Shown: positions 3,221 to 43,163 of the stretch, piece by piece | How positions within the stretch are numbered: position 1 is the stretch's first letter | How the letters are laid out: every line of letters begins with the position of its first letter | Origin: Minisyncoccota bacterium | GTDB taxonomy: Bacteria > Patescibacteriota > Minisyncoccia > UBA6257 > JAGOQP01 | Direction: 5' to 3' | Length of the DNA: 51,148 nt | Assembly: GCA_017991375.1 (NCBI GenBank) | Contig: JAGOQP010000001.1 | Coordinates: 1 to 51,148, forward strand | The notes under the pieces: generated by a model | The model's database searches: none | What the model was told of the DNA's origin: nothing | The model's input: only the letters and a program-made list of their open reading frames with translations | Program-made: the position numbers and the translations under genes

Positions 3221-3331
3221 GTTAAGGATTAATGATAAAAGATGAATGGTAAACGAGTTATATGTGGAACGATAAACGTTGAATGGACAACGAGATGTGA
3301 TTAACGATTAAAGATAAAAGATTAATGATTA
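3221..3331. repeat. C-poor, stop-dense low-complexity spacer (TTAATGATTAA family)
   Basis: The tract reads ggattaatgataaaagatgaatggtaaa...gattaacgattaaagataaaagattaatgatta. It is almost devoid of C on the + strand and lies between the rnpB terminator and the 3' end of the minus-strand gene. Confidence 0.7.
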
Positions 3332-3343
3332 CCCGCTTGTCTC

Positions 3344-4034: not shown

Positions 4035-5402
4035 ATGAAAAAGAACTACAAAAAATCGCTTGGGATTATCGTTCTTTTAGCGATTGTTTTTAGCACTTTA
4101 TTAGGGGCAAAAATGCTCTACGCTCAGTATTATGGAGCTCCTGTTGTTCAAACGCGATCGGCGAGTGATGTTATGGGAATGCAGGCAACGCTCAATGGAA
4201 CGGTTAACCCGAATAACTACGAAACAACGTATTGGTTTGAATATGGGACCGATGGCTCCCTTAATAATCGTACGGGAGGGAAAATTATCTCAAGCACAAG
4301 CTACGATGTTTCGGTGGATGCTTTCTTGAGTGGCTTATATCAAAATACCACATACTCGTTTCGGCTTGTCGCTCAAAACACACAAGGAACTCAATACGGA
4401 AGCGTTTTGACATTTGTAACGGGATCAACGTCTGGCTCTACGGTGATTACTTATTCGGCAACCGATGTTGGATCAAACAACGCAACGCTCTGGGGGTACT
4501 CGAGAGTTACTGGGTCAGGAGCAGGTGGATGGTTTGAATATGGAACGTCAGCATATTCGTTCCCCTATTCTACCTCGCAGTCATCGTTATATAATTGGCA
4601 GTCACAACGCTTTTCACAATCAATCACCAACTTATCATCGGGGACTACGTATTACTTTCGAGCAGTTGTTCGTGACGGAAGCTCTGTTTCGTATGGGCAG
4701 ACACTTTCATTTACCACACAAGGATATGGCGGGTATGTAACGCCGTACTACACACAGCAGTACGCTTATTCGCCAACGTATGTTGATACGTCTTTCTATT
4801 CATACACCACTCCGAGTGATACTACCTATTTAGGGGATGACGGTAACGTGTGGACGTTGCCGATGCAGTTTGTTTCAGATACGTCTGTAACATTGCGCGG
4901 AAGCGTTGATCCATCGGGATATCAAACAACAGTATGGTTTGAATATGGGCAGTCACGCACTCCATCGTGGTCATCTGAGCGGCGCGTTTTAGGCGCGTAT
5001 TCTGGCTCTAGTGTCTTTTCTATTGATGTACAAGGACTCTCTCCCGGGGTAACTTATTACTATCGGGCCGTTTCTCAAAATGCTCAAGGAACATTTCATG
5101 GCGCGTTGCGAGGCTTTCGTATTGATGGTGGATATGTGGCGCCGGTAAGTTATTCATACCAACCAGTCGCGCAACAACCTGTATGGTATGGTACCACGGG
5201 GTATGCGCCCTATAACGCGTATGCATCTATGTATCCAATCTACTCTGCTTCGAATGTATGGTATAACACGCCCGGGTCGGCCCTTTCAGCGTCAGTTGTT
5301 GATACTGTCTCCAAAGCAGGGATAACCACCTGGCAACTGGTAGCCATTATCGCCGCGTTATTTGTCCTTCTTGGATTTGTCCTAGTGGCGGCAGTGAGAT
5401 AG
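4035..5402 (+). CDS. secreted, C-terminally membrane-anchored repeat protein (3 x WFEYG modules)
   Basis: Signal peptide MKKNYKKSLGIIVLLAIVFSTLLGAKMLYA. Three about 100-aa modules share ATL.G.VNP..Y.TT.WFEYG...TTYY.RAV. C-terminal TM helix WQLVAIIAALFVLLGFVLVAAV. Confidence 0.75.
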   Translation: MKKNYKKSLGIIVLLAIVFSTLLGAKMLYAQYYGAPVVQTRSASDVMGMQATLNGTVNPNNYETTYWFEYGTDGSLNNRTGGKIISSTSYDVSVDAFLSGLYQNTTYSFRLVAQNTQGTQYGSVLTFVTGSTSGSTVITYSATDVGSNNATLWGYSRVTGSGAGGWFEYGTSAYSFPYSTSQSSLYNWQSQRFSQSITNLSSGTTYYFRAVVRDGSSVSYGQTLSFTTQGYGGYVTPYYTQQYAYSPTYVDTSFYSYTTPSDTTYLGDDGNVWTLPMQFVSDTSVTLRGSVDPSGYQTTVWFEYGQSRTPSWSSERRVLGAYSGSSVFSIDVQGLSPGVTYYYRAVSQNAQGTFHGALRGFRIDGGYVAPVSYSYQPVAQQPVWYGTTGYAPYNAYASMYPIYSASNVWYNTPGSALSASVVDTVSKAGITTWQLVAIIAALFVLLGFVLVAAVR

Positions 5403-5541: not shown

Positions 5542-7005
5542 ATGAATAAAGAGCGTATTTTCAGGAACATACATATTTTCCTGGTTATAGCACTTTTGTC
5601 TGTGGTTGTTTTTAATGGCGCCTTGGGGGTTGTTTTCGCAACGGTTGTTTTAGACACCACTCCGCCGGTGCTCAATCTACCCTCTGATATGTGGGTCAGC
5701 GCACCAGGTCCTAGTGGAGCGATCGTTTCTTTCTCCGCGACGGCTACCGATACAGATCCAACTAATCCAACAGTGACTTGTACACCAGCATCGGGTTCGG
5801 TGTTTCCTCTTGGGTCTACCACTGTTTCTTGTTCCGCTACCGATACAGCCGGAAACACCGCAACGGGAAGTTTTGTTGTTTCTGTCGGTGGGGCAAAAAT
5901 TACCAGTGAACGTGTGACTTTGAATGGTACCAGTACAGTCACGGTCAAGGGAGGTGATACTGTTACCGCTACTATGGTCAATACCAGTGTCATGTCGGGT
6001 GAGTGGATGTCAACCAGCTATCAGATAGGAGGGGGTGAATTTCGTGTTGATACTCCAAATCATGGAGTCGGGGTTGGCTACACCGAATCATTTCCAATTA
6101 CCGCGCCTATAGCAGAAGGAGTTTATACGGTTATGTTCGGTTTTTGTGATACAGAAGGTTGTTTGGGCGATCCTATCATCCAAAGTGGATTGCCGGGTGG
6201 TTTAATTGTAGACAACACTCCTCCAGTGTTGAGTTTACCAGCTGACACTTTTGCTAGTGCTTCTGGGCCAAGCGGAATCGCCGTTTCTTTCTCCGCGACG
6301 GCTACCGATACAGATCCAACTAATCCAACAGTGACTTGTACACCAGCATCGGGTTCGGTGTTTCCTCTTGGGTCTACCACTGTTTCTTGTTCCGCTACCG
6401 ATACAGCCGGAAACACCGCAACGGGAAGTTTTGTTGTTTCTGTCGGTGGGGCAAAAATTACCAGTGAACGTGTGACTTTGAATGGTACCAGTACAGTCAC
6501 GGTCAAGGGAGGTGATACTGTTACCGCTACTATGGTCAATACCAGTGTCATGTCGGGTGAGTGGATGTCAACCAGCTATCAGATAGGAGAAGGTAGTGTT
6601 GTTTGTGTTGATACGCCCAATCATGGTGTTGGTACTAATTACACAGAATCGTTTCCTATTGTCGCCCCTCTTGCAGAGGGAGCATATACTGTTATGTTTG
6701 GTTTCTTCAGTGAAGAAAATTGCTCAGGTGATCCCGCGATACGTAGCGGGCTTCCTAACGGGTTGGTGGTGGACACCACTCCCTCTCCTGCTTTCTCTAT
6801 ACTTGGTGGGTCTGGAGGTGGAAGCACAGAATCAGCGGTGTATAGGATTGGCGATATTAACAAAGACCGTCAAGTTAATTTACTCGATCTCGTGCTCATG
6901 ATGGCAAATTGGGGGAAAACCGGATACAACGAGTGTGATCTCAATCGTGATGGAATCGTCGATAAATACGATTTTGCGTTGCTCATGCTTAATTGGGGAC
7001 TCTAA
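5542..7005 (+). CDS. secreted protein with two HYR-type modules and a C-terminal dockerin-like domain
   Basis: N-terminal signal anchor. The HYR-like block TPPVL.LP.D...A.GPSG..VSFSATATDTDPTNPTVTCTPASGSVFPLGSTTVSCSATDTAGNTATGSFVVSV occurs twice. The C-terminus GDINKDRQVNLLDLVLMM...CDLNRDGIVDKYDFALLML is the two-segment dockerin signature. Confidence 0.8.
   Translation: MNKERIFRNIHIFLVIALLSVVVFNGALGVVFATVVLDTTPPVLNLPSDMWVSAPGPSGAIVSFSATATDTDPTNPTVTCTPASGSVFPLGSTTVSCSATDTAGNTATGSFVVSVGGAKITSERVTLNGTSTVTVKGGDTVTATMVNTSVMSGEWMSTSYQIGGGEFRVDTPNHGVGVGYTESFPITAPIAEGVYTVMFGFCDTEGCLGDPIIQSGLPGGLIVDNTPPVLSLPADTFASASGPSGIAVSFSATATDTDPTNPTVTCTPASGSVFPLGSTTVSCSATDTAGNTATGSFVVSVGGAKITSERVTLNGTSTVTVKGGDTVTATMVNTSVMSGEWMSTSYQIGEGSVVCVDTPNHGVGTNYTESFPIVAPLAEGAYTVMFGFFSEENCSGDPAIRSGLPNGLVVDTTPSPAFSILGGSGGGSTESAVYRIGDINKDRQVNLLDLVLMMANWGKTGYNECDLNRDGIVDKYDFALLMLNWGL
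5724..6031 (+). repeat. 308-bp perfect direct repeat, copy 1 (inside the HYR/dockerin CDS)
   Basis: Identical base-for-base to 6282-6589. The offset is 558 nt, which is 186 codons. Confidence 0.95.
6282..6589 (+). repeat. 308-bp perfect direct repeat, copy 2
   Basis: Identical to 5724-6031. Flanking bases differ: t5723 vs c6281, and g6032 vs a6590. Confidence 0.95.
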
Positions 7006-13046: not shown

Positions 13047-13781
13047 ATGTATCAGGTGCAAACGCAGGAGTTTGTTGGACCGCTTGATAAACTACTGGAA
13101 CTCATAGAAGAGAAAAGGTTAGATATTACTCGTATCAGCTTGGCGGAGGTCACAGCTGATTTTATTGTATATGTTCAAGATATGCAGGCACGAGTGAGTG
13201 CTGATTCTCAAAAAGATCAATCGCAATCGGCGCGCATACTTGCAGATTTTTTAGTTGTCGCTTCACATCTTCTTTTGATAAAATCAAAAGCGCTCCTTCC
13301 CGATCTTGAACTTACTCAAGAGGAAGAAGAAGGAATTTTTGATCTTGAGCGACGACTAAAGTTGTACAGTGATATCAAGCCATTATTTGGGCTTGTGAAA
13401 AAAACATGGGGAATGTCAGCGCAGTCATTTTCACGCGAGTTCCTCTCTCATATTCCTTCTATATTCTATCCTGCATCAAACGCGACGCCTGATGCTCTGG
13501 CTCACGCGCTCGGCAAATTGTTGCAATCTTTGGGAACGTTTGTCGTTGAACAGGAAACGATAGAGCGACAACTCTTTTCATTAGAAGAAAAAATTACCGA
13601 ACTTTCTCAGACGTTGTTAAAAGGAATCTCTCGTTTCTCGCAAATCGCCGAAAGCAAGTCGAGGGGAGAAGTTATCGTGCTGTTTCTCGCGTTACTGCAT
13701 TTATTGAGAGACCAAACACTTACCGTTCGGCAGGATAATTTATTTGGAGAGATGCAGATGGAAATGATCAATAATCATTAA
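13047..13781 (+). CDS. scpA: segregation and condensation protein A
   Basis: N-terminal FVGPLDKLLELIEEKRLDITRISLAEVTADF is the ScpA signature. The start is taken at the internal ATG (MYQVQ...); the 12993 start is also possible. Confidence 0.85.
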   Translation: MYQVQTQEFVGPLDKLLELIEEKRLDITRISLAEVTADFIVYVQDMQARVSADSQKDQSQSARILADFLVVASHLLLIKSKALLPDLELTQEEEEGIFDLERRLKLYSDIKPLFGLVKKTWGMSAQSFSREFLSHIPSIFYPASNATPDALAHALGKLLQSLGTFVVEQETIERQLFSLEEKITELSQTLLKGISRFSQIAESKSRGEVIVLFLALLHLLRDQTLTVRQDNLFGEMQMEMINNH

Positions 13782-13893
13782 TCATTGACTATTAATCTTT
13801 AACAAGAAAAACAAGAGAAATAATCATCGATCCACTATTCGTTTCGCATTAATTGTTTTGTGCATCATTCATTTGGTGTTTTGTAATCATACT

Positions 13894-23838: not shown

Positions 23839-23976
23839 CTTCGACTCGCTTTGCTCGCTCAGGGCAGGCTCTTCGACTCGCTTTGCTCGCTCAGGGCAGG
23901 CTCTTCGACTCGCTTTGCTCGCTCAGGGCAGGCTCTTCGACTCGCTTTGCTCGCTCAGGGCAGGCTCTTCGACTCA
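23839..23976 (+). repeat. tandem repeat, 32-bp unit x about 4.3 (CTTCGACTCGCTTTGCTCGCTCAGGGCAGGCT)
   Basis: Unit starts at 23839, 23871, 23903, 23935 and 23967 (partial). The copies abut directly, with no spacers. Confidence 0.95.
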
Positions 23977-25145: not shown

Positions 25146-26274
25146 GCATCTTTTGAGTCCTTTGTCTGTGGTATGTGATCGCAAATCGATGTGCTTCATC
25201 GCGGATAGCAAGAAATAGTTGGGCTATTTCTTTGGGAAATGCTGATAGCGCCACACCTCTTTTTGCCCAAGGGGAATATAACATTCCTTTTGTTGCCAAT
25301 CGCTTTGTTTCTATTTTATTAGTAATCGAACGTTTGTGCTGCTTTGCTTTGGCGAGAGCGACTATAGGAAGGGGAATATCTTTGAGCGCGGAGAGCTGCC
25401 CTTTTCCTCCGTCTATTACTATAAGGTCAGGATAGGGCCACTCGGTGTGGGCAAGACGTCTTTGAATAACTTCACGCAGTGATTGTGGATCGTTTGCTCC
25501 AGACACTGTTTTAATTCTAAATTTTCTGTAGGCGCCTTTATTGGATTTTGAGCCATTAAACACCACACATGAACCAACTGAGTGAGATCCTTGGGTGTTT
25601 GATATGTCGTAGCATTCTATGCGAGGAGTAACAGGCGCGGGCGCGTATGGCTGACGAATGCGAATATTTCCGGCGTATAAGTAAAGCAACGTTTTGAGTG
25701 CCGCGATTACCAGGTGATATGTCCGAGCTTTTTCCAAATGAGCATTGCAGAGCCCTAAGTGGTAGTACAAGCATGGTTTGTGAATGGAACTAGTACATGT
25801 TTTATAAGGGAAAAGCGTTCGTGCTGACATGAGTAATTGTTTTGCTTCTTTTGATGATACGAATGGACCTATAATATTTCCAGGAGCGATTTTTGGTTGA
25901 TGTGTTGTAGTAATTCGTGGATAGGACTCGTTGGATATAACAACGAAAAGAAAATTTTTATCGTCTTTGAGTTCTACGTTATATTTTGGCTGATGACGTT
26001 TGATAAGGATTGATTCTAAAATAAGAGCATCATTTTCAGTTTTGGTGGTTATGTAGTCAATATCGGCAATAGCGCCGTAGGGGACTATAGTGCTCGGAAT
26101 TTTATTATTTCTCTTGTTTGATCGATGGGTCACAAAGTGACCGCGTACGCGCGCGCGAATATTTTTGGCCTTTCCAATGTATAAGATTTCTTGGAGACGA
26201 TTTTTAAAAAGATATATTCCCGGGAGGGTTGGTAGTATCTTTATTTTTTCTTTTACGCTTTTTTTCATTATCAC
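25084..26274 (-). CDS. uvrC: excinuclease ABC subunit C, minimal form (396 aa)
   Basis: N-terminal GIY-YIG (PGIYLFKNRLQEILYIGKAKNIRARV). UvrC endonuclease-domain blocks: RIECYDISNTQG, YRKFRIK, PDLIVIDGGKGQLSA, RDEAHRFAITYHR. I see no UVR-domain block and no C-terminal (HhH)2. Confidence 0.85.
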   Translation of the reverse strand: MIMKKSVKEKIKILPTLPGIYLFKNRLQEILYIGKAKNIRARVRGHFVTHRSNKRNNKIPSTIVPYGAIADIDYITTKTENDALILESILIKRHQPKYNVELKDDKNFLFVVISNESYPRITTTHQPKIAPGNIIGPFVSSKEAKQLLMSARTLFPYKTCTSSIHKPCLYYHLGLCNAHLEKARTYHLVIAALKTLLYLYAGNIRIRQPYAPAPVTPRIECYDISNTQGSHSVGSCVVFNGSKSNKGAYRKFRIKTVSGANDPQSLREVIQRRLAHTEWPYPDLIVIDGGKGQLSALKDIPLPIVALAKAKQHKRSITNKIETKRLATKGMLYSPWAKRGVALSAFPKEIAQLFLAIRDEAHRFAITYHRQRTQKMLIVRPHRTSRETSDRISHLQ

Positions 26275-26291
26275 TTAAGTATAACGTGTAC

Positions 26292-26374
26292 GAGCCCCCA
26301 GGAAAGGGGGCTCGGTGTGTGCGGGTGGGGTCAGGAACTATGGTATGTTGCAGGTGCCGCCAAGATCGCGAAGG
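26292..26374 (-). repeat. 83-bp module, copy A (last 12 codons of the small gene plus downstream hairpin)
   Basis: Identical to 26782-26864. It contains the hairpin GAGCCCCC-aggaaa-GGGGGCTC and encodes LRDLGGTCNIP* on the minus strand. Confidence 0.95.
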
Positions 26375-26721
26375 AGCTGTGATCTTTCTTCGTAGAGCTT
26401 CCTTGATTGAGCAAGTAATGCATTCAAAGTACCCCTCCATTTCTCTAACGTTGTCTCGTTTGGTATAGGGTCAATCCGTTTCCCTTGAGCTATATTGTCA
26501 AAGAGATTAGTAAGTGCTTTGGGAAGCATAAAATAGTTTCCGATCAAACGTGCGGTGGTGGCCAGGCGAAACATGTCGTTATGCCACATTCCCTCTTTTA
26601 GCGTTCTAACAACCTGATGCCCTGAAGCCACATACAATACCAAGGCAGATAACTCACTAACACTCAGTCCCTGTTCAGGAAGTGGGAGCATCTTCCCTTT
26701 TGTTTGAGTGCTGTACGACAT
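26338..26721 (-). CDS. hypothetical 127-aa protein, paralogue 1 (C-terminus ...LRDLGGTCNIP)
   Basis: AAGGGAG lies 7 nt before the ATG (MSYSTQTKGKMLPL...). Promoter TTGACA (26772-26767), 17 nt, TTAAAT (26749-26744). Shares N-terminal, central (RIDP, E.W) and C-terminal blocks with 26828..27202. Confidence 0.65.
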   Translation of the reverse strand: MSYSTQTKGKMLPLPEQGLSVSELSALVLYVASGHQVVRTLKEGMWHNDMFRLATTARLIGNYFMLPKALTNLFDNIAQGKRIDPIPNETTLEKWRGTLNALLAQSRKLYEERSQLLRDLGGTCNIP

Positions 26722-26781
26722 TTTTTGTCTCCCTTCACCAGTCATTTAATAAGACTTGTCTTGCGTTGTCAAATAAAATAT

Positions 26782-26864
26782 GAGCCCCCAGGAAAGGGGG
26801 CTCGGTGTGTGCGGGTGGGGTCAGGAACTATGGTATGTTGCAGGTGCCGCCAAGATCGCGAAGG
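26782..26864 (-). repeat. 83-bp module, copy B
   Basis: Identical to 26292-26374, offset 490 bp. A third, diverged copy of the non-coding part lies at 27264-27302. Confidence 0.95.
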
Positions 26865-27202
26865 GATCTCTTTTTTCGTTCAAAGAGCCTCCCGACTCTG
26901 GTGTTTGCTTCGTCTAGAATCCTTGACCACCTTTCTAAGGTTTCTATTGCAACAGGGTCAATCCGTTCTTCTCTGGTGATTTTATCAAAGAGACGAAGAA
27001 GCTCTTGCGGAAGAGCAATATAAAGCTCGACTTTGTCGGTTGTACCAATTTGAAGAGATGGCGGATTCTGGGGGTTCTGAGTTTTTAGCCACTCAATAAC
27101 AAATGATATCGATTGAATCTTCAGTAGCAAACAGTACAAGTCGTTAACACTTAGATTAAAAAGTGGAAGCACTTTCTTTCCCTTTTGTGTACTATGTGAC
27201 AT
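26828..27202 (-). CDS. hypothetical 124-aa protein, paralogue 2 (C-terminus ...LRDLGGTCNIP)
   Basis: GGAAGGAG before the ATG (MSHSTQKGKKVLPL...). Promoter TTGACA (27254-27249), 17 nt, TTAAAT. Own hairpin terminator. Confidence 0.65.
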   Translation of the reverse strand: MSHSTQKGKKVLPLFNLSVNDLYCLLLKIQSISFVIEWLKTQNPQNPPSLQIGTTDKVELYIALPQELLRLFDKITREERIDPVAIETLERWSRILDEANTRVGRLFERKKRSLRDLGGTCNIP

Positions 27203-27303: not shown

Positions 27304-28044
27304 CTAGAACGAGTATGAGAGTCCGGCGCCGACGATGAACTCAGTTGTTCGATCGTCGGTTACGTCGATGGGGGTTGAGAACTTGATATCGGTTAGGATC
27401 GCTGTCCTTGCCGATATCTTTGCTTTGGTGGTTACGAAGGCCTGGCCGAGCCAACCCTCGTTTTTCCCAAGCCCTCCGCTGTCGTGGAAGATTCGGGCAT
27501 TGGCCGATAGCTCGATAGCGGGGGTAATGCTCCACCGCCACCTGGCGCCAGCATATCCCCACTGGGTCCATCCGGGTTGAAAATTGGTTTTGCTTCCATC
27601 CACGTTGTGGTATCCCTCCAAACGCAGATAGGGGGCTACCGCGACGGTGCCAAGGGTGAACGAACGACCGATCTCCGCGTATGGAGACCAGACGTCGTTA
27701 AACACTGTCCCCAATGGAACGACGTCGATGTAGAGAATTCCCACATCAACGTTGTACGCGCCCAGGGGTTTGACGATGCCGACGTTATAGTCGATCTCGT
27801 TGGCGAAGGTGGTGTGAAATCCACCTCCATTTGCCGCGCACGACCACCAGATGTCGGCGTACACGCCGTTGCTCCACCCGGCCCATAGGTCGGTTTGGAC
27901 CACGGGGGTGTCGTAGAAGATTCCACCGTTTTGGCCAAGATATCGCGAAAACATCTTGGATGTGAGCGTGAGGTTCTGAGCGTCTGCCGCGTGGGCAAAG
28001 CACAGAGCTAGTGTGATGGCAATAACCACGGCGATCTTTTTCAT
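27304..28044 (-). CDS. outer-membrane beta-barrel-like protein (resembles the TIGR02001/Gcw_chp pattern)
   Basis: Signal peptide MKKIAVVIAITLALCFAHAADA|QN. LTLTSKMFSRYLGQNGG...PVVQTDLWAGWSNGVYADIWWS...NEIDYNVG resembles the proteobacterial Gcw_chp barrel N-terminus. C-terminal GAGLSYSF ends in Phe. G+C is visibly higher than in neighbouring genes. Confidence 0.6.
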   Translation of the reverse strand: MKKIAVVIAITLALCFAHAADAQNLTLTSKMFSRYLGQNGGIFYDTPVVQTDLWAGWSNGVYADIWWSCAANGGGFHTTFANEIDYNVGIVKPLGAYNVDVGILYIDVVPLGTVFNDVWSPYAEIGRSFTLGTVAVAPYLRLEGYHNVDGSKTNFQPGWTQWGYAGARWRWSITPAIELSANARIFHDSGGLGKNEGWLGQAFVTTKAKISARTAILTDIKFSTPIDVTDDRTTEFIVGAGLSYSF

Positions 28045-28248: not shown

Positions 28249-31218
28249 ATGAAATCGAAAAAACAACAAAAATCGGATGTTATTGAAATTATCGGCGCTC
28301 ACGTTCACAACCTAAAAAACGTGACTGTCTCCATACCCAAAAACAAACTCGTGGTGGTCTGTGGTGTTTCTGGATCAGGGAAGTCATCGCTCGCGTTTGA
28401 CACGCTCTATGAAGAGGGGCAGCGCCGCTACCTAGAGAGTTTGTCATCGTACGTGCGGCAGTTTTTGGGTGGGTTTAAAAAGCCCGACGTTCATAAAATC
28501 ATCGGACTTTCACCAACGATTGCCATTAACCAAAAAAGTGTGTCTTCCAATCCACGTTCAACGGTTGGAACTATCACTGAGATATACGATCACCTAAGGT
28601 TACTTTTTGCGCGCGTTGGGACTCCCTACTGTCCCCACGATAATATTCCTATTACTGCCCAAACGCCTCAAGAAATCGCCAGCCACATAATAACGCTCTC
28701 AAAAGATACGCAGATTACTATTTTGGGGCCGGTCGTTTCAGGGAAAAAGGGGACACACCAAGCGATTTTTGACGAAATTGCGCGGAGTGGGTACACACAG
28801 GTGCGTGTCGATGGGTTTGTGTATGCTTTATCCGAGGCACGAGAACTGACGCTTGATAAAAATAAAAAACATACCATTGAGGTGATAGTGGGAACATTTA
28901 TGACCGGCATCAAAGCCGACATTCAAAAAGGGGTCTCCAAAGCGGAAAAACAAGCGCTCAAGAATAAAAATAAAAAATTGGAACGGTTTTTCAAAGAAGA
29001 AAAAGTGGAATTATTAGAAAAAATCAGAAAAGCGCTTTTGATGGGGAATGGATCTCTTAATGTTCTTGTGCGGCCTCTTTCGGGAAGTGTTGAACATAAA
29101 AAACGCGGTGAGAAAGTGTATGCTTTTTCTGAATTATACGCGTGTCCGCGTTGTGGGTTTTCTATTCCAAAAGTTGAGCCACGCTCATTTTCATTTAATA
29201 GTCCTTTTGGCGCGTGCGTTTCATGTCAGGGGTTGGGGACTAAGCTCGAAATGGATATGGAGCTTCTTATCAATCGGGACATTTCTCTTGAGGCGGGGGC
29301 CATTCGGCCGTGGTTTGCTTTGAGTCGCATGGCGCGTCGCGCGTTGGGGTCAAATTGGCAACACTTTGTCGTTGAGACCATCTTAGAGAATCATTCTATT
29401 TCTCCTCGCACGCCGTTTAAAGACATTCCCAAAGAAATCCAAGACGAAATTCTTTTTGGCAAAAAAGATGATTATATATATTTACAAGACGGATCATGGG
29501 AGGGGAAAACAATGTTTGAAGGAATTATTCCTCGTTTGGAACGATTGTATTACGAAACGGATTCAGATTTTATTCGGCAAGAGCTTTCTCGATATATGCG
29601 CGAAGCCACATGTCCAACATGCGGTGGCTCTCGATTAAAACCAGAAGCGCTTGCCGTACGTGTTGGTGGTAAAACTATTTTCGATGTTGCTACTATGCCA
29701 GCGGTTGATATGATTCGATTTTTTTCAGACGGGATTTATCGCGCGATGAGTGTTTCATCTCGAGCGGTTGCGGAACCGATTGTGAAAGAAATTGTTGCCA
29801 AAGCGCACTTTCTCGTTGATGTGGGTCTTGAATACATTACTATCGCACGAAGCGCGACCACTTTGTCTGTTGGAGAAAATCAACGTATTCGTTTGGCAAC
29901 GCAACTGGGGTCTGGACTATCGGGCGTTATTTATGTTTTAGACGAACCAACCATCGGGCTTCACCCGCGTGATACTGATCGACTCATAAAAACGCTCAAA
30001 GGGCTGCGTGATCTTGGAAACACGGTTATAGTAGTGGAACACGACGAGCGTGTAATAGAGGAAGCTGATTGGGTTGTTGAAATTGGGCCACTTGCCGGGA
30101 GCGAAGGAGGCAGATTGGTTTTTGAGGGAACTCCCGCTCAACTTGCTCTCTCATCAACGCTCACCGGACAGTATTTGTCGGGAAAGAAAAAAGCGGCATC
30201 GGGACTTTTAAAGAATCTCGTGCTTCATACTCCCTCGCAAACAGTAACTGTGTCTGGGGCGTCTCAGTTTAATCTTAAAAAGGTCTCCTTGTCTGTTCCG
30301 CTCAGAAAATTTACCGTGGTGGCTGGAGTTTCTGGATCTGGCAAAAGCACGCTTGTGCTTGATGTGTTTGCAACCGCGTTACAAAAAGAGGTAATGGATA
30401 TGAGCGTCGTTCCCGGGATATACGATGGACTTACCGGGCAGAGCAATCTTGATAAAGTCGTACTTATTGATCAAAGCCCCATCGGACGTACGCCACGATC
30501 AAATCCGGCAACTTATACGGGAATTTTTACCTATATCCGGCAGTTTTTTACGCGACTTGAGGAAGCGCAAATTCGAGGATACGGACCATCATATTTTAGT
30601 TTTAATGTAAAACCCGGTCGATGCGAAGCGTGCAAGGGAGAGGGATTTAAAAAAGTGGAAATGTATTTTCTTCCCGATATGTATGTAGAGTGCGAAGTGT
30701 GTCGGGGGACTCGCTTTTCTCCCGAGGTGCTTGATGTAAAGTACAAAGACAAGCACATTGCCGATGTTCTTGCAATGAGTGTGCGCGAAGCGCGGGAGTT
30801 TTTTGCGTCATTTTCATACATTGCGGAAAAACTTACGGTATTAGAGGAAATTGGACTTGGATATATGAAGCTCGGACAGCCAGCGACAACACTTTCTGGA
30901 GGAGAGGCACAACGTATCAAGCTCGCGGACGAGCTTTCAAAACGAGCAACGGGGAAAACGATGTACGTACTAGACGAACCGACGGTAGGGCTTCATTTTG
31001 AAGACACGCGAAAACTACTCTATATTTTGCGATCGTTGGTGCTCAAAGGTAACACCGTAGTAGTTATTGAACACAATCTAGATGTGCTCAAGGAGGCTGA
31101 CTGGATTATTGAGCTTGGTCCTGAGGGAGGAGACAAGGGAGGACAAATTATATTTGAGGGAACCGTTGATGATATAAAGAAAAAGAAAACAACGACGGGG
31201 AAATATCTTGTTAACTAA
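28249..31218 (+). CDS. uvrA: excinuclease ABC subunit A
   Basis: 989 aa. Two ABC modules (GVSGSGKSS and GVSGSGKST; LSGGE... signatures; VLDEPT Walker B) and Zn modules (CPRCG...[14 protein letters not shown]...CEVCRG). Confidence 0.97.
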
Positions 31219-31450
31219 CGACCAAAAACAGACAACCTACGACAGAATAGGGGATAAATCATTAATCTTTTATCTCTTACCATTATCCAAGGACGAAGAA
31301 TGGTCTAAGGTGACAGATGCACGTAAACTCGTTTTGGTAAACATGAGCGAATCCGAGATAGTATCGGTAGATAGTGTGGGCAACAAAAATTTTTGGTCTT
31401 AAAATGTTATTATTCTTGTATGTTGTTAGTTGTGTGTCGTTCGTTGTTAT

Positions 31451-31672
31451 ATGAAACTGACTATTATCGCAAAAGCGAATCAGAAGCAAAACAAAATAGA
31501 GAAAACAGGAATCAATTGTTTTACTGTATGGACAACTAAGCCCGCGACGGAAAACAAAGCAAATGAAGATATTGTTAGACAGCTTGCAGAATATATTGGT
31601 ATCGCCCAAACGCGCATCCATTTGGTACTTGGTAAAACAAGCAAGACGAAGGTGATAGAGATTGGTGATTAG
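31451..31672 (+). CDS. DUF167 (YggU-like) family protein
   Basis: MKLTIIAKANQKQNKIEKTG...TKPATENKANEDIVRQLAEYIGIAQTRIHLVLGKTSKTKVIEI matches the UPF0235/DUF167 pattern (..P..G.AN..l...la..l.v....v.i..G..s..K.v.i). Confidence 0.7.
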   Translation: MKLTIIAKANQKQNKIEKTGINCFTVWTTKPATENKANEDIVRQLAEYIGIAQTRIHLVLGKTSKTKVIEIGD

Positions 31673-31815
31673 CTTGCCCTGACTTGTGGTGAGTGTGATC
31701 GAACCAGCGAAGTCGAAGGGTGAAAAGCTTGCCCTGAGCGAAGTCGAAGGGTGAAAAGCTTGCCCTGAGCGAAGTCGAAGGGTGAAAAGCTTGCCCTGAG
31801 CGAAGTCGAAGGGTT
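31672..31815 (-). repeat. tandem repeat, 31-bp unit x about 3.6 (GCTTGCCCTGAGCGAAGTCGAAGGGTGAAAA on +)
   Basis: Full units start at 31727, 31758 and 31789, preceded by one interrupted unit. Same family as 23839-23976 but in inverted orientation. Confidence 0.9.
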
Positions 31816-32053
31816 AATCCGTGTCCTAGTAAAAAAATACGGCTGATAAGGTGTTGTGAGCAAACACTCTTACCAGCCGATGCGGCGTCGGGGCATGTGT
31901 GCCCTCTTGCTTGTAGGCGGGTCAGAAGATCTTCTTCATCGGCGCACCTCCCCATTCTCTATGGCATTGAAGGAAGTGAATAATATGGCTCTCGCTATAA
32001 AACCACCTCCTTTTTTGTATTTGCAAAAGCTCGTTTGGTAGTGCTGACGCGAG

Positions 32054-32287
32054 CTATTTGCAGTACTGTCCGATGAGGAGATATACTCCCCGTGCGATCA
32101 GGAGAGTAGACGCGACGGCGAGCGCTACCTTGATCCATAGCCAACTCGTTGTCGCTACAATCATGATGGCGATTCCAGCCAACGCAATACCGAGCGCTAG
32201 CGGAAAAACTCCAAGGATTGAGTCAGCGTGTTCGTCTCCCATCCACGCCTCTGGTTGTTCTTGATGCCCAGTTATCGTTGTTTCCAC
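32054..32287 (-). CDS. small two-TM membrane protein
   Basis: GTG start 7 nt after AAGGAGGG. Promoter TTGACT, 17 nt, TAAAGT just upstream. Two hydrophobic helices (ILGVFPLALGIALAGIAIMIVA, WIKVALAVASTLLIARGVYLLIG). Confidence 0.55.
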   Translation of the reverse strand: METTITGHQEQPEAWMGDEHADSILGVFPLALGIALAGIAIMIVATTSWLWIKVALAVASTLLIARGVYLLIGQYCK

Positions 32288-32374
32288 TGTCGTCCCTCCT
32301 TTTTAAGTGTGCGTAAAATTGACTTTAGCACAAATATAATTTTCAGTCAACAAATTGTTTTTATTGTTATACAT

Positions 32375-33254
32375 AAAAAAACGAGCCACTACTTCAACGG
32401 GGTTGTTTTCCCGCGAAGTCGTGGCTCTAGCCAGATTGTTTCTTTGGTCTGGCGCCAACGCCTTTTGGCGTTAGTTCCGACAGATGTCGGGGGTGCTGCG
32501 TATCTTTTGGCGTCCGCCTCGACAAACAAGAAGAGTGCAGTTGTTTCGTCCTTCTTCTTGATGGAGGCCGTGCTTGGGGCGGTGCTCTATCTACGGGCTA
32601 CGGGCACCGTTACAACAACGACATGCGCAAGAACTCCCTATCTAACTCGCTCGGGAATTTCTCGCGACTTTTTGCGCCCATACCACGCCTAGGCGCCGGG
32701 CTGCCTGGTCTCTTGGTTGGGCCTACCAGGACTTCTCGCCGTACGCGACGACGTCATGCTTTAGCCGCTCCGCCTCACACGCATGTTTGGGGCCCTCCGT
32801 GAGTGCTTATCCAGCACTCCGCGCTCCGGGTTGTTGTTACTCACCACCCATCTTGATGAGTGGTGAGATGAACTTGAGTCCTCGCTTCGTTTTTAGGCGA
32901 CCATCTTGAGCGGGATCAGCCCACGACGAAGCTCGGACGAAGCTGGCGACGGGTGATGGCCGCAGCCAGAAACGAGCGGACAATCATAGGTATCCTCCTT
33001 CCGCCATTGGCGGATGGTAGGCGCCCTTGTTGGCCTTTCCGGGTTTGTGCCGCGTGTTGCCACGGTATTAAGATCACTATCTTAATACCGTCCCCACTGC
33101 TTGAGATTTGCTAAGGTTGGTTAGGCCATAGCAAAACAAACCTGGGTTACGCGCATGCTTCGTGGAACTTCCCAAGGACTGACTTCTCCTTTTGTGGTTA
33201 TTAAAACCATCCACCCCCTTTCCTTTCGTTGGTTTCAACACAACTCAATGAACT
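32375..33254 (-). ncRNA. about 880-nt GC-rich structured RNA candidate of unknown class
   Basis: Promoter TTGACT (33289-33284), 17 nt, TATCAT (33266-33261). Long terminator hairpin (32383-32427) plus a 7-U tract. There are many perfect local helices and no credible ORF on either strand. Confidence 0.55.
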
Positions 33255-33538
33255 GGTTCTATGATACAGCGCTAAACGAGAAGAGTCAAATAGACGGAGG
33301 ATAATCATTGATCCTTGATCACTAATCCTTAACCGCAGGACATTAATCGCTTGTCTTTAGTCATTTTTCTTTGGCTTGAGATCTCGCATAGTGAATAATC
33401 ATGTCTTCAATCTCAATGCATGATTGACGATTAGTAAACATTCTTTTCCTGTGGTGAGTAGTTAGTTGTTTATCCTGAGCGAGCAGAGCGAGTCGAGTGG
33501 TTTGTTGTTGGTTGTTAGTTGTCGATTATTCTCATTGT

Positions 33539-34243
33539 CTAGTGCGTATGCCTAAACACATCTACTACGAGACGGTTGTCAGGAGCTATTTCTTTTTGTG
33601 CGACGCGCACGATGATATCGGCAACTTGTTGTGGTGTGTGATATGCTCTCTCTCCAGGAAAGCATGAAAGAAACATATCCGTCGCGGTTGATCCAGGGGT
33701 TATGGTGACAAACTCAATACCATATTTTTTTACCTCATCGGCAAGTGACTGGGTGATATTAATAAGCGCGGCTTTGGTGAGTGAATAAAGCGAAAGATGT
33801 TCAATACCATATAATCCCGACCCTGATGAGATCATCATAATCATTCCACTTTTTTGCTTTTTCATAATCTCGAGCACCTGCTGGGTCACGTTTAATGTTC
33901 CTTTGATGTTGGTGTCTATAATTACGTCCCAATCCTTTGAGGTGGTGTATTCAAAATCTTTTCTTTGGGCGATTGATGCGTTATTAATAAGAACGTCAAT
34001 AGTGCCAAATTTTTTAATTGTCTGTCTTATAGCATGGCGAATCTGCCGAGTACTCGTGATAGTTCCCTTGATAAGGAGCGCGTTCTTGTGTTCCTCGAGT
34101 ACCTTTTTATCCGGCGTATTTTTGAAAGAGAGTGAATATATAGCAACTCGGGCTCCCGCATCAAGTAATTGTTTTGCGGTTGCGAGCCCAATACCAGTTG
34201 CGCCGCCCGTAATGAATATCGTTTTATCTTTAACGCTGTACAT
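33539..34243 (-). CDS. SDR-family oxidoreductase
   Basis: TGGATGIG Rossmann motif, NNAS, catalytic YSLTKAA (YxxxK). 234 aa. Confidence 0.88.
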   Translation of the reverse strand: MYSVKDKTIFITGGATGIGLATAKQLLDAGARVAIYSLSFKNTPDKKVLEEHKNALLIKGTITSTRQIRHAIRQTIKKFGTIDVLINNASIAQRKDFEYTTSKDWDVIIDTNIKGTLNVTQQVLEIMKKQKSGMIMMISSGSGLYGIEHLSLYSLTKAALINITQSLADEVKKYGIEFVTITPGSTATDMFLSCFPGERAYHTPQQVADIIVRVAQKEIAPDNRLVVDVFRHTH

Positions 34244-34279
34244 GATACTATTATACTCGTAATCGTATCAGTTGTCTCT

Positions 34280-35335
34280 ATGGACTATCTCGTTCTTCTT
34301 GTGGCCATTATTGTTGTCGGCGTTGCTGTTATCGTCTCCTTTTTTGTTTTTTCAAAACGTATCATCGCTTCGGGAAAACCAGCCGATGCCACTCAATCGC
34401 TCCTGTTACTCCAAAATCAACTTAATGAACTTGCGCGGACGTTGGATACAAAACTAGGAGAATCACACCAAGTTGCGCGACACCAATTCGAACAAAGCGC
34501 CCGCATTATAGGCGATGTTACCGAAAAACTTACTCGTCTAGAAGAAACCAACAAACAAGTAGTTGGATTTGCCGACCAACTTAATAAGCTCCAAGATATT
34601 CTCAAAAATCCAAAACAGCGCGGAATTTTGGGTGAGTACTATTTAGAGACGTTACTCAAAAACGTACTTCCGCCAGGAAGTTATCAGATGCAATACCCGT
34701 TTTCCGATGGAACTATTGTCGATGCGGTGGTGTTTGTAAAAGACCGGATCATTCCCATTGATTCAAAATTTTCTTTGGAGAACTACAACCGACTTGTGGA
34801 AGCGATTGATGTTGCCGAGCGGGAGCGTTTAGAAAAAGCATTCAAACAAGATTTGAAAAATCGTATTGACGAAACGGCAAAGTATGTAAAACCAGACGAG
34901 AAAACAATGGATTTTGCGTTTATGTTTATTCCTCACGAGGCGATCTATTATGATCTTCTGGTCGCTCAAGTGGGAGCGGTGAAGGTAAACACGCGCGATT
35001 TGGTGGAGTACGCATTTAAAGAAAAACACGTAATCATCGTTTCTCCGACATCGTTTTTGGCGTATCTACAAACCGTGCTTCAGGGGCTCAACGCGCTCAA
35101 AATAGAAGAGACAGCAAAAGACATCGTAAAAAATGTAAACGAACTTGGAAAACATTTAAAAAACTACGAACTGTTTGTTCAAAAAATGGGTGGTCATTTG
35201 GGCACAACTGTGAACGCGTACAATGCCGCGTATAAAGAATTTGGAAAGATAGATAAAGATGTGCGGCGCATTGCCGGAGAAGGATTTGGTGTTGAGGCGA
35301 TAAACATAGAAGGACCACGGCAGGATGAGGAGTAG
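34280..35335 (+). CDS. rmuC: DNA recombination protein RmuC
   Basis: N-terminal TM helix, coiled coil, then the RmuC nuclease-like block GILGEYYLETLLKNVLPPGSYQMQYPF.DGTIVDAVVFVKDRIIPIDSKFSLENY...FMFIPHEAIY. Start taken at the internal ATG (MDYLVLL...). Confidence 0.88.
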   Translation: MDYLVLLVAIIVVGVAVIVSFFVFSKRIIASGKPADATQSLLLLQNQLNELARTLDTKLGESHQVARHQFEQSARIIGDVTEKLTRLEETNKQVVGFADQLNKLQDILKNPKQRGILGEYYLETLLKNVLPPGSYQMQYPFSDGTIVDAVVFVKDRIIPIDSKFSLENYNRLVEAIDVAERERLEKAFKQDLKNRIDETAKYVKPDEKTMDFAFMFIPHEAIYYDLLVAQVGAVKVNTRDLVEYAFKEKHVIIVSPTSFLAYLQTVLQGLNALKIEETAKDIVKNVNELGKHLKNYELFVQKMGGHLGTTVNAYNAAYKEFGKIDKDVRRIAGEGFGVEAINIEGPRQDEE

Positions 35336-35340
35336 AGGGG

Positions 35341-35448
35341 AAAATCATTCATCGTTGACCGAGAGAGAATAATCATTAATCTTTTATCTTTAATCCTTGA
35401 CCGAAAACAGGGGGACAATCGTTAATCTTTCATCCTTAATCATTAATT
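35341..35448. repeat. G-poor, stop-dense low-complexity spacer (TTAATCATTAA family)
   Basis: The tract reads aaaatcattcatcgttgacc...aataatcattaatcttttatctttaatccttgacc...caatcgttaatctttcatccttaatcattaatt. It lies between rmuC and the groES promoter. Confidence 0.7.
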
Positions 35449-35555: not shown

Positions 35556-35843
35556 ATGAACCTACAACCACTTTCAAATCACATCATATTAAAGCCCCTC
35601 GAGGAGCAAAAGGTCACTGCGTCAGGAATCGTTCTTCCCGATAACGCGTCGGAAAAGCCGACACGAGGAGAGATTATCGCCGTAGGCCCAGGAAAACGAT
35701 CAGACAAAGGAGAAAGCATGCCCATGACTGTTGCGGTCGGAGACGTGGTGCTTTTTAAAAAGTACGGTCCCGATGAGGTTGAGATTGATGGGGTTAAGTA
35801 CTTAGTAGGCGATGAAGACGATGTGTTGGCGATTATAAAATAA
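35556..35843 (+). CDS. groES: co-chaperonin GroES
   Basis: 95 aa. LQPLSNHIILKPLEEQKVTASGIVLPD...GEIIAVGPG matches the Cpn10 pattern. Confidence 0.95.
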   Translation: MNLQPLSNHIILKPLEEQKVTASGIVLPDNASEKPTRGEIIAVGPGKRSDKGESMPMTVAVGDVVLFKKYGPDEVEIDGVKYLVGDEDDVLAIIK

Positions 35844-35866
35844 ACTTGTGTTGTTTTTAGACATAA

Positions 35867-37507
<1,641 letters not shown>

Positions 37508-37556
37508 AAAAGGCCGAATGTGCTATGCTGAAGATATTATAAGTAATAATTAATCT

Positions 37557-37808
37557 ATGGGACTTGAACAATTAAACGGCTTTTCTGGAATGTTTGGAGC
37601 GCGTCCGTGGCTTATGGTGTTGCTTTTGGCGTGGTCGCTCGTGTGGAAGGGATTTGCATTGTGGAAGGCGGCACACAAAAATCAATCGGTGTGGTTTGTG
37701 GTTATGTTAGTGCTAAACACAGTTGGTATTTTAGAAATCCTATATCTGTTTGTATTTTCAAATTGGAAAATCAAGAAAGAAACCGCGCACGAAGAGACAC
37801 AACAATAA
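37557..37808 (+). CDS. small two-TM membrane protein (DUF5652-like)
   Basis: PWLMVLLLAWSLVWKGFALWKAAHKNQSVWFVVMLVLNTVGILEILYLFVF. Followed by the hairpin ACAGAGGCTTGT...ACAAGCCTCTGT plus T5 (about 37840-37870). Confidence 0.6.
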   Translation: MGLEQLNGFSGMFGARPWLMVLLLAWSLVWKGFALWKAAHKNQSVWFVVMLVLNTVGILEILYLFVFSNWKIKKETAHEETQQ

Positions 37809-37883
37809 TACGGACAGATTATTTTAGTGTGAGTATAAAACAGAGGCTTGTACACAAGCCTCTGTTTTTGTTACTGTGAAAGG

Positions 37884-37957
37884 GATAATCTTTAATCGTT
37901 TATCTTTAATCATTAACCGAAGAGATAACCATTAATCGTTGACTGTTAATCCTTAAG
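37884..37957. repeat. G-poor, stop-dense low-complexity spacer
   Basis: The tract reads gataatctttaatcgtttatctttaatcattaaccgaagagataaccattaatcgttgactgttaatccttaag. Confidence 0.7.
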
Positions 37958-42240: not shown

Positions 42241-42470
42241 TGTTCTTTTATGCGCCGTCCTTTTGAACACGCGCATACTCGGGCGTGAAAAGGGCGGTTT
42301 TTCTTTTCCCACGTTTTCCACAGGAAGCTTTTGTTTTGTTTATTTATTTGCTATACTAATAGTAAGAGAACGATGTCATGTGAGGTGGCACTGTTCTATG
42401 CTAAAAAGAGCGCTGCAGAAGCGTTCTTTTTAATTCTTTGGTAAAAATAACCATTTCTTCATTTTGCTGC

Positions 42471-42548
42471 TAAGGATTAATAATCAACGAGTAATGATTA
42501 TCTCTTATCTTGGTCAATGATTAACGATTAAAGATTAATGATTATCAT
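42471..42548. repeat. stop-dense low-complexity spacer
   Basis: The tract reads taaggattaataatcaacgagtaatgattatctcttatcttggtcaatgattaacgattaaagattaatgattatcat. Confidence 0.7.
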
Positions 42549-42587
42549 CTCTTGACTTTCTCTTTTTGTGCGTGTTACGATATGGTT

Positions 42588-43114
42588 AGTAACTTGTCAA
42601 TATCGAGTTCGCATCGAGCATGGCTTGGGTGCGAGGTGACCCGTGGCTTCTTTGGAAAAGAGCGCCTTTCGTTTCCGATTGGTAAGGGATGCTCTGCTCA
42701 AGGCGAGCAGACGAGGGGTGCGCGATCATCTCTGGGGAAGGTTGTGGCAAGCTCATAGACGCCACGCTTGAGGGGGATGATCAATAGAGTCGACAAAAGG
42801 TGAGGAGTGGCCAACGAGACAGCCCTGAGTTGCCGATGAGGTGGCGACTCTTGTTTGTCTGCGGAGGCGGCCGGCCATAACCCTCCATGTCGTTGTCGAC
42901 GCTATGCTCTTTCCAAAATAAGCGTCATCTCGCTCTTGTCACGGTGCGAACTCGATTCTCTCAAACGTATGGGGCCGGGCTGGCTAACGAAGCAGTCGCA
43001 ACACTCGGAGTAACAACGGTACGTCTAACACCTCCTTTCTTCGATGTCGTGTGTCTCTCCCAGCCCAGCCCCACCAAATGTCGCGGCGACCTCCTTGGTC
43101 GCCGCCTTTTTTTT
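42588..43114 (+). ncRNA. about 525-nt GC-rich structured RNA candidate of unknown class
   Basis: Promoter TTGACT (42552-42557), 18 nt, TACGAT. Perfect terminator GCGGCGACC-tcctt-GGTCGCCGC plus T8 (43083-43114). Only short, compositionally odd ORFs. Confidence 0.5.
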
Positions 43115-43126
43115 AAAACAAAAATC

Positions 43127-43154
43127 AAAAACCCTCTCTTAAGAGAGGGTTTTT
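43127..43154. terminator. bidirectional intrinsic terminator
   Basis: AAAA-ACCCTCTCTT|AAGAGAGGGT-TTTT, a perfect 20-nt palindrome flanked by A and T tracts. It serves the minus-strand gene ending at 43164. Confidence 0.75.
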
Positions 43155-43163
43155 GATCAGTTT

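Follow-up and report, generated by a model that had tools for sequence, protein, structure and literature searches.

Is a long, GC-rich stretch of DNA that has a promoter, a terminator and many hairpins, and no credible open reading frame (ORF), the gene for one giant structured RNA? The question is raised by a 51,148-nt stretch of a Minisyncoccota genome (contig JAGOQP010000001.1; hereafter the window), in which positions 33254–32375 of the minus strand form a candidate unit of 880 nt that a preliminary description had placed among the giant RNAs of the GOLLD, ROOL or OLE type. The unit is indeed non-coding, structured by folding energy (minimum free energy, MFE, z-scores of −5.3 to −6.4) and bounded by a conserved promoter and terminator, but it does not appear to be one giant RNA. 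Comparison with related loci leads us instead to read it, with a probability of about 0.6, as a predicted chimeric non-coding transcript, whose 5′ part belongs to an older small RNA and whose tail derives from an insertion; homologues outside haplotypes at least 88 % identical to it were found for the first ~260 nt only.

Comparison with a syntenic locus in a sister species

As relatives of the locus we took those of the best 80 RmuC homologues in GTDB genomes (59–75 % identity, nearly all titled as metagenome-assembled genomes of Patescibacteria or the candidate phyla radiation, CPR), and searched these 80 Patescibacteria loci together with all other fetched loci (1.36 Mb) using nhmmer, blastn and a covariance model (R1). 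The window is chromosomal DNA of a Paceibacteria-like member of the Patescibacteria, and its CPR/Patescibacteria host, at which the preliminary description had hinted, is confirmed by these relatives. Contigs L081 and L082 are identical to the window, L094 and L095 are ~93 % identical and L088/L089 ~88–90 % identical; the window, L088, L094 and L095 are the four haplotypes compared below. A sister species is represented by contigs L084–L086, which carry an SDR orthologue of 69 % identity and the gene order GroEL-GroES-RmuC-SDR-[gap]-DUF167-UvrA, syntenic with the window.

The gap between SDR and DUF167 in L084 is ~590 nt long and contains a single promoter-to-terminator unit of ~320 nt, which is also present in L085 and L086. 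Window positions 33149–32993 align to L084 4702–4838 (74 % over 157 nt; blastn E ~1e-22, nhmmer 3e-21, cmsearch 126 bits), and window positions 31957–31789 align to L084 4830–4984 (blastn 70 %, E ~2.5e-14; nhmmer E 6e-14). On the L084 unit these two matches are adjacent, overlapping by ~10 nt, and L084 passes directly from the homologue of 32993 to that of 31957. Because the two flanks match adjacent parts of one contiguous unit, we regard the 880-nt unit as probably chimeric, consisting of 262 nt of the older RNA and 618 nt of a 1,035-bp segment that has no counterpart in the sister species. The preliminary description had proposed a homologue search; nhmmer and blastn gave matches in the window clade and in L084, and none for the tail outside the window clade. 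Among the loci compared, the older RNA is present in the L084 and window lineages only, and the tail and the adjoining small gene orf77 in the window lineage only.

The segment is located exactly at the position of the Shine–Dalgarno (SD) sequence and start codon of the older RNA. It holds 618 nt of GC-rich non-coding DNA, a terminator, a separate extended −10 promoter, orf77 and a 96-nt spacer, and nowhere in its 1,035 bp is there an ORF for an integrase, transposase or recombinase. Its borders are marked by an imperfect direct repeat of 10 to ~22 nt, GGAAGGAGGA(TACCTATGA) / GAATGGGGAGG(TGCGCCGATGA), and its ends show a weak terminal inverted match, CTATG..ATTG, recognized by eye. The junctions are the same in all four haplotypes, and this sharing by independent haplotypes excludes an assembly artefact; the contigs derive from six sequencing runs, SRR11088371, SRR11235434, DRR438493, DRR438508, ERR14964774 and ERR7015367. 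Coordinates of the features are collected in Table 1.

Table 1. Features of the RNA locus and of its neighbourhood (window coordinates; TM, transmembrane)
Feature	Position	Strand	Remarks
UvrA	28249–31218	+	
DUF167	31448–31672	+	
31-nt tandem repeat	31700–31817		
3′ part of older small RNA	31831–31957	−	L084 homology; 0–3.9 % divergence among haplotypes
1,035-bp segment without counterpart in sister species	31958–32992	−	L084 contiguous across site
orf77, orphan 77-aa protein	32287–32054	−	GTG start; GGAGG 7 nt upstream; two TM helices predicted by eye
orf77 promoter, TTGACT-17-TAAAGT with TG extension	32322–32350	−	Identical in all four haplotypes
Candidate 880-nt unit	33254–32375	−	
GC-rich non-coding tail of the unit, predicted to stem from the inserted segment	32375–32992	−	G+C 56.6 %; no period-3; MFE z −3.9; rates vary by segment
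Intrinsic terminator of the unit	32375–32427	−	~16-bp interrupted stem + U7
Hypervariable stretch (segment D)	32495–32619	−	Unalignable to L088; L088 52 alignment columns shorter
Conserved 96-nt island in tail (segment C)	32620–32715	−	1.0 % vs L088, p=0.004; 1.1 % vs L094, besides a 6-nt loop deletion
7-bp hairpin (32819–32813/32807–32801)	32801–32819	−	Three compensatory double changes in L094/L095; columns 456–474
12-bp hairpin	32840–32867	−	Compensatory double changes C-G to U-A and A-U to G-C in L088; columns 404–432
5′ part of older conserved small RNA	32993–33254	−	L084 homology; low divergence
Sigma-70-type promoter of the unit, TTGACT-17-TATCAT	33261–33289	−	10/12 consensus matches
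AT-rich motif GATCAATGATTAT, directly upstream of −35 hexamer	33301–33313	−	
SDR oxidoreductase	34243–33539	−	
RmuC	34169–35335	+	
GroES/GroEL	35556–37507	+	

Rates of change along the locus

With pooled four-fold degenerate sites as the baseline (8.8 % divergence between the window and L088), the locus is a mosaic of strongly conserved and very fast-changing pieces. The 5′ part of the older RNA differs from L088 by 0.9 % (p=1e-5 against the four-fold sites) and its 3′ part by 3.9 %. Within the tail, segments A and B (32992–32716) differ by 12.1 % and carry eight indels, segment E differs by 7.5 %, and in the hypervariable segment D a hairpin at 32560–32527 is absent from L088; next to these lies the conserved 96-nt island of segment C. 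In all, ~70 % of the tail evolves at or above the synonymous rate. Against L094, for which four-fold sites differ by 2.3 % and RmuC is identical, segment B reaches 14.4 % (p=5e-6), and the promoter spacer and the spacer after orf77 are hyper-divergent.

Two observations concern the surroundings of the unit. The DUF167 gene differs from its L088 counterpart (6080–6301) at 15 % of nucleotides and 11 of 73 aa, compared with 2.2–2.3 % for the neighbours GroEL and RmuC; together with the hyper-divergent segments in and around the unit, this suggests that divergent alleles have recombined around the slot. The 249-nt spacer between SDR and the promoter (33290–33538, minus strand) is more conserved against L088 than synonymous sites (2.4 % versus 8.8 %) and mostly absent from L084; it holds a possible 26-codon ORF at 33441–33361 (MFTNRQSCIEIEDMIIHYARSQAKEK), the stop of which is lost in L088.

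A predicted small RNA gene shared with the sister species

In the L084 unit, a TTGACT promoter precedes a structured 5′ domain, after which come the sequence GGAGGUGCGCCC-AUG-AAG-AAA-AUU-UUC-UAA and a long terminator. As the next gene after it is convergent, with no downstream gene on its strand, we regard it as a stand-alone RNA and not a leader. In the window, the 5′ part contains a composite stem (33146–33093), a variable-length hairpin (33091–33062) and, at its end, a hairpin (33014–33000; UCCGCC-AAU-GGCGGA) that runs into an SD-like GGAGG. The 3′ part contains the SD sequence GGGGAGGUG, a five-codon mini-ORF encoding MKKIF (31939–31922), a hairpin enclosing both, for which a helix UGGGG...CCCC(G/A) can fold, and a terminator with a stem at 31879–31840 and a U-tract at 31839–31831. 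Relative to L084, the 5′ part shows three compensatory pairs, including the variable-length hairpin on its conserved ACGG/CCGU base, and in the terminator of the 3′ part two changes are compensatory and one is a wobble change; with three lineages, this support for the older RNA is suggestive only. The mini-ORF has three interspecies differences, all third-codon synonymous and including UAA to UGA; two of the three also maintain a 12-nt palindrome, so that translation is not proven by them.

The covariance model of the core of this RNA matched only the window-clade and L084 loci in the search set, and no Rfam family credibly matched the intact L084 unit, at gathering thresholds or at E ≤ 10. 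As candidate identities, tmRNA, RNase P RNA, SRP RNA and 6S RNA were rejected (no Rfam match in the window or L084, and no tmRNA by ARAGORN). The predicted ~320-nt RNA gene is as such unclassified and so far confined to a narrow clade of Patescibacteria (Paceibacteria-like). The unit is absent altogether from the outgroup loci L087, L090, L091 and L092, in which the slot between SDR and DUF167 is, respectively, empty, occupied by a four-TM ORF (919–1263) and a PEP-utilising-domain gene, by a coiled-coil ORF (942–1334) and by an unrelated TM ORF (2183–2434), which marks the slot as a hot spot of gene turnover in distant relatives.

Promoter, terminator, folding and coding potential of the unit

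What the preliminary description had reported from the letters alone was borne out in full, at the positions given there. The promoter is present, and its −35 hexamer and position are retained in L088, L094, L095 and L084. Directly upstream lies a copy of an AT-rich motif, GATTAATGATTAT, which with at most two mismatches occurs 22 times in the window versus 2.3 times expected (3227–3332, 13764–13832, 17809, 31255, 33301, 35341–35448, 37543–37937 and 42489–42545). The copies cluster intergenically, often just upstream of TTGACT promoters (those of the RNA unit and groES, and one near 42550), making the motif a candidate for a UP element or for the binding site of a regulator; sharing it with groES and another TTGACT promoter suggests that the promoter of the unit belongs to a class really used by the organism. 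The long terminator described there was also recovered, with nested helices (32427–32421/32389–32383, 32419–32415/32395–32391 and 32413–32410/32401–32398) followed by the U7 at 32381–32375; where the window has a G-A mismatch, the three other haplotypes have a U-A pair (alignment columns 863/893).

The G+C counts given for single lines (33/60 and 37/60, against 24/60 in a coding line) were exact. Positions 32375–32992 have 56.6 % G+C versus 44.1 % window-wide, and the most GC-rich 600-nt stretch of the window falls within them. The perfect local helices are likewise real, with a 13-bp stem (33091–33079/33074–33062), a 12-bp hairpin (32867–32856/32851–32840) and two further hairpins, AACGCC and CCGAC. 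The unit contains three perfect hairpins of 7 bp or more, versus 0.44 expected from dinucleotide shuffles, and 2 of 300 shuffles reach three. The unit is thermodynamically structured: its MFE z-score was −5.3 or −6.4 in two runs, and its halves taken separately gave −3.4 and −3.9, the latter for the GC-rich tail.

No credible protein was found in any frame, again as described. The longest minus-strand ORF in the unit has 56 aa, and the sole long plus-strand ORF at the unit (154 aa) is antisense to the neighbouring gene. Period-3 power is 0.98× background, versus 6–14× in real genes of the window, most indels between haplotypes have lengths not divisible by three, no stop-to-stop frame has a Pfam match, and a concatenated six-frame query found no protein match among the 8,000 candidates listed from 5.8 billion proteins, a weak negative. 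On these grounds the unit is non-coding and bears no sign of a decayed protein gene.

Covariation

RNAalifold on the four haplotypes gave 257 pairs, seven of them compensatory, with a covariation term of +0.56 and hence no net covariation support. Five of the seven fall in two adjacent hairpins, of 12 and 7 bp. In a column-shuffle control of the tail, eight double changes were seen versus 1.55 expected (~5-fold), and the counts of one-sided and broken pairs equalled random expectation. Sense and antisense alignments scored alike for G-U versus A-C pairs, by which the strand assignment is not decided. Between the MFE structure of the window and L088, 17 pairs are kept and 23 broken, some of the latter being MAFFT misalignments. 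We read these patterns as suggesting a few selected hairpins and a terminator, and not an ornate global fold. The compensatory changes that the preliminary description had named as a test are seen in two hairpins and in the terminators, with no net signal over the unit.

The adjoining gene orf77

The gene orf77 is predicted by gene callers in public contigs and has a period-3 power of 2.9× and a third-codon-position G+C content (GC3) of 0.54, versus 0.40–0.42 in neighbouring genes. Its relatives are variants of at least 90 % identity, with none else among 5.8 billion clustered proteins or, by a complete HMMER search, among 1.84 billion representatives; Pfam, PHROG and remote-homology searches gave none. 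Homology to the small membrane protein encoded by orf83 of L092 was ruled out (BLASTP E=1.5). The gene differs from that of L094 by 13 substitutions and seven aa changes, while RmuC is identical. Its promoter is invariant, and the wider 87-nt stretch around it (32288–32374) has two to three differences among haplotypes.

Comparison with known RNA classes

Rfam 15 cmscan of the whole window at gathering thresholds returned two tRNAs only, and at E ≤ 10 the interval 32100–33500 gave only chance-level matches to small unrelated families; ARAGORN was negative for tmRNA, including permuted forms. The Infernal check that the preliminary description had called for is in line with its own reading by eye, in which no class was recognized and tmRNA, SRP RNA and RNase P RNA were discounted. 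BLASTN in distant mode found nothing similar to the unit in phage and plasmid collections, no phage, PHROG or viral-contig match falls at the unit, and scans of viral contigs with two conserved 21–24-mers and orf77 gave no match. Scanning the fetched loci for GC-rich, ORF-free gaps revealed no analogous elements, and a metagenome scan anchored on the SDR protein gave only a 28 %-identical paralogue among the matches listed.

The large ornate RNAs GOLLD (RF01998) and ROOL (RF03087) (PMC2864571, PMC5737381, PMC12286853) resemble the unit in their size range of ~600–800 nt, their lack of ORFs and their rich predicted secondary structure. The unit matches neither model, however, at gathering thresholds or at E ≤ 10. 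GOLLD and ROOL are usually found in a prophage or phage-like region, often next to tRNA genes, whereas the unit lies outside any prophage, between housekeeping genes (SDR on one side, DUF167 and UvrA on the other), with no adjoining tRNA gene, the closest being 4.8 kb off. It also lacks multi-domain covariation and is restricted to one narrow clade: the full unit occurs only in haplotypes at least 88 % identical, whereas for an ornate class covariation across most helices in diverse homologues would be expected.

The nearest architectural analogue of the locus is OLE RNA (RF01071) with its membrane partner OapA/OAP (PMC3413148, PMC12286853). In both, a GC-rich, hairpin-rich non-coding RNA gene of several hundred nucleotides lies directly upstream of a small membrane-protein gene on the same strand. 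OLE is deeply conserved and shows abundant covariation, whereas the unit is apparently chimeric and mostly unconserved even among ~90 % identical haplotypes. Furthermore, the unit has no match to the RF01071 model even at E ≤ 10, its host belongs to the Patescibacteria and that of OLE to the Firmicutes, and orf77 is an orphan similar to no family, for which OapA identity cannot be claimed.

Other classes fit less well. Group I and II intron models (Intron_gpI, Intron_gpII, group-II-D1D4) were unmatched at E ≤ 10, and the only ORF is that of the two-TM orphan. No Rfam match was found for HEARO or the IscB–TnpB omega RNAs, and the neighbours are SDR, RmuC, DUF167 and UvrA. Type III toxin–antitoxin RNAs consist of tandem ~36-nt repeats followed by a terminator and a toxin ORF; no tandem repeat occurs within 32375–33254, and the sole nearby array (31700–31817) is outside the unit. 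In leader and attenuator RNAs a hairpin sequesters the SD and is accompanied by a leader mini-ORF and a terminator, and the uninterrupted unit similarly ends with a GGAGG-occluding hairpin, a five-codon ORF and a strong terminator; unlike in leaders, no gene follows the L084 terminator, the next one being convergent, and the ~250-nt 5′ domain matches no riboswitch, T-box or ribosomal-protein leader. Genomic islets, finally, integrate into small RNA genes (tRNA and tmRNA att sites), and there are split RNA genes such as two-piece tmRNA. The locus resembles such cases in having foreign-looking DNA within an RNA gene, flanked by a short direct repeat, in retaining both halves of the gene and in that a relative shows the empty site, but differs in that the segment has no integrase and just 1 kb, interrupts the gene in its middle, at the SD and start of a mini-ORF, without a replacement 3′ end, and that the interrupted RNA belongs to no known family.

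Proposed origin of the locus

The chimeric reading implies the following course. The uninterrupted RNA would have comprised the promoter, a multi-helix 5′ domain, a partially SD-sequestering hairpin, the MKKIF mini-ORF and the long intrinsic terminator. A compositionally foreign segment of 1,035 bp would then have been inserted at the SD and start codon, its terminator now ending the transcript, such that transcription from 33289–33261 would yield a chimeric RNA of ~880 nt. The conserved 5′ 262 nt may be the part that carries the function of an older RNA, regulatory or a scaffold, and the tail would be mostly passenger, giving termination, a few stabilizing hairpins and one conserved 96-nt island. 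The gene orf77 would be expressed from its own promoter, and the older 3′ part, with its SD, mini-ORF and terminator, probably ends the orf77 mRNA as its 3′ untranslated region (UTR) and terminator.

That the segment was inserted, and not deleted in the L084 lineage, seems to us roughly twice as likely as the reverse. For an insertion speak the GC3 of orf77 against ~0.41 in its neighbours, its orphan status and fast evolution, and a second GC-rich gene in the window that is absent from both relatives. Several points nevertheless weigh against the chimeric reading or its polarity. No outgroup carries the unit, and a deletion in L084 between two SD-like repeats gives the same picture, so polarity has to be argued from indirect evidence. 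The flanking repeat amounts to hardly more than two SD/start regions, between which recombination could occur, and small membrane genes are present in the outgroup slot between SDR and DUF167. With no integrase or transposase and an imperfect direct repeat, the insertion mechanism cannot be named. Nor can the tail be called inert: pairing in two of its hairpins survives five double substitutions, the 96-nt island hardly varies and the predicted fold of the tail is more stable than those of shuffled sequences (z −3.9). Lastly, the genome-collection and metagenome scans were anchored on proteins, and wider homologues of the RNA may have been missed.

Alternative explanations

The strongest competitor holds that all 880 nt form one large structured RNA of a new class, of which the L084 form is a derivative by deletion between SD-like repeats. 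The promoter and terminator retained in four haplotypes, the MFE z-scores of −5 to −6, the compensatory changes ~5-fold over the column-shuffle expectation and the conserved 96-nt island all accord with it; in L088 another hairpin takes the position of one of the hairpins, a kind of replacement that occurs in the peripheral stems of large RNAs, and the small membrane-protein genes in the outgroup slot mean that an orf77-like gene could be ancestral. We nevertheless consider it improbable, given the change at or above the synonymous rate over most of the tail, with its many indels and one deleted hairpin, the 257 predicted pairs without net covariation, the foreign GC3 of orf77 and its lack of relatives, and a tail that beyond relatives of at least 88 % identity is unmatched in Rfam, in phage, plasmid and viral collections and in the 80 Patescibacteria loci.

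Still less favoured is a long regulatory leader of orf77, in which the terminator at 32427–32375 would act as an attenuator and read-through would control the membrane protein. Both are on the same strand, the orf77 start follows 88 nt after the terminator, and the SD-sequestering hairpin at the end of the 5′ domain is of a kind typical of leaders. Between terminator and orf77, however, lies a separate extended −10 promoter, invariant in all haplotypes, and the sister species retains the 5′ domain without any downstream gene. We think it equally doubtful that the GC-rich hairpin RNA and the two-TM protein form a functional cassette, either OLE/OapA-like or a mobile module targeting RNA genes, with the split RNA halves, each transcribed separately, still working after assembly in trans or re-joining; if true, this would explain the purifying selection on both halves as well as the tail hairpins that keep pairing despite above-synonymous change.

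CPR bacteria carry unusual rRNA insertions and introns according to reviews (PMC9698310), a precedent for regarding the 1,035-bp segment as an intron or intervening sequence that is excised from a read-through transcript, restoring the older RNA. Both halves of that RNA are under strong purifying selection after the interruption, and the segment ends can pair (CUAUG...CAUAG), joining the flanks. The probability of this explanation is nonetheless very low: there is no group I or II signal at E ≤ 10, the segment has a strong terminator and a promoter of its own, its ORF is an ordinary one, with no homing endonuclease or reverse transcriptase, and the conserved 3′ half is explicable as the terminator and 3′ UTR of orf77. 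That the tail is a decayed protein-coding gene acquired along with orf77 is just as implausible, for although the segment opens with a perfect ribosome-binding site and start (GGAGGAUACCUAUG), the first 27–29 codons are in frame between the window and L094, and another foreign GC-rich gene is present in the window, L088 does not keep the frame intact, and this pseudogene reading was rejected on the period-3, Pfam and (more weakly) six-frame results given above.

On the chimeric reading, the locus is a real, unclassified and narrowly distributed non-coding RNA, whose apparent giant size comes from fusion, and it opens no new giant-RNA class. The cues by which large RNAs are scanned for in AT-rich genomes (GC-rich and ORF-free sequence, a promoter, a terminator and hairpins) can thus arise from a small RNA fused to acquired DNA, and comparison with a syntenic empty site reveals such a fusion. 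Also brought to light are the unclassified ~320-nt RNA gene of a Paceibacteria-like lineage, with its multi-helix domain, SD-occluding hairpin and five-codon mini-ORF, the conservation of its halves though they lie 1 kb apart, and a hypervariable hairpin region adjoining an orphan membrane protein. As the non-coding RNAs of Patescibacteria are little known, an RNA of such a narrow clade is a useful entry point.

Other features of the window

A second ORF-free gap, of 640 nt (42241–42886, plus strand), contains a terminator-like hairpin, a cluster of the AT-rich motif and a TTGACT promoter, and a GC-rich leader of ~310 nt precedes an 89-aa ORF (42887–43156) without a family match. The GC-rich part (42575–42886) was rejected as a sibling RNA (MFE z only −1.0, no similarity, nothing in Rfam).

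Copies of a 31/32-nt tandem repeat, whose core is CGCTCAGGGCA(A/G)GC, are found at 31700–31817 (3.7 copies, beside the terminator of the older RNA) and at 23856–23965 (four copies). There are eight matches versus 0.17 expected, and the family is also represented at 1979–1992. The array is absent from L088; in L084 (~4990–5015) the terminator is followed by one related copy, CCCTTCGACAAGCTCAGAGCAAGC.

Between UvrC and UvrA, an ORF at 27304–28044 (minus strand) encodes 246 aa with a signal peptide (MKKIAVVIAITLALCFAHAADA) and the C-terminus ...GAGLSYSF; it has a G+C content of ~57 %, like the region around it, is without a Pfam or PHROG match and looks like a Gram-negative outer-membrane beta-barrel, which would be odd for Patescibacteria. 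The UvrC–UvrA gap measures ~160 nt in L084 and holds one 124-aa ORF in L088, and because the gap differs in these relatives the ORF is probably a recent foreign acquisition. Nearby lie two paralogous minus-strand ORFs of 135 and 124 aa (26338–26745 and 26828–27202), both ending in ...LRDLGGTCNIP and without a family match, where L088 has the single 124-aa ORF; the plus-strand frames 26229–26468 and 26704–26979 have the peptide YEPPGKGARCVRVGSGTMVCCRCRQDREG in common, indicating that a stretch of DNA was duplicated there.

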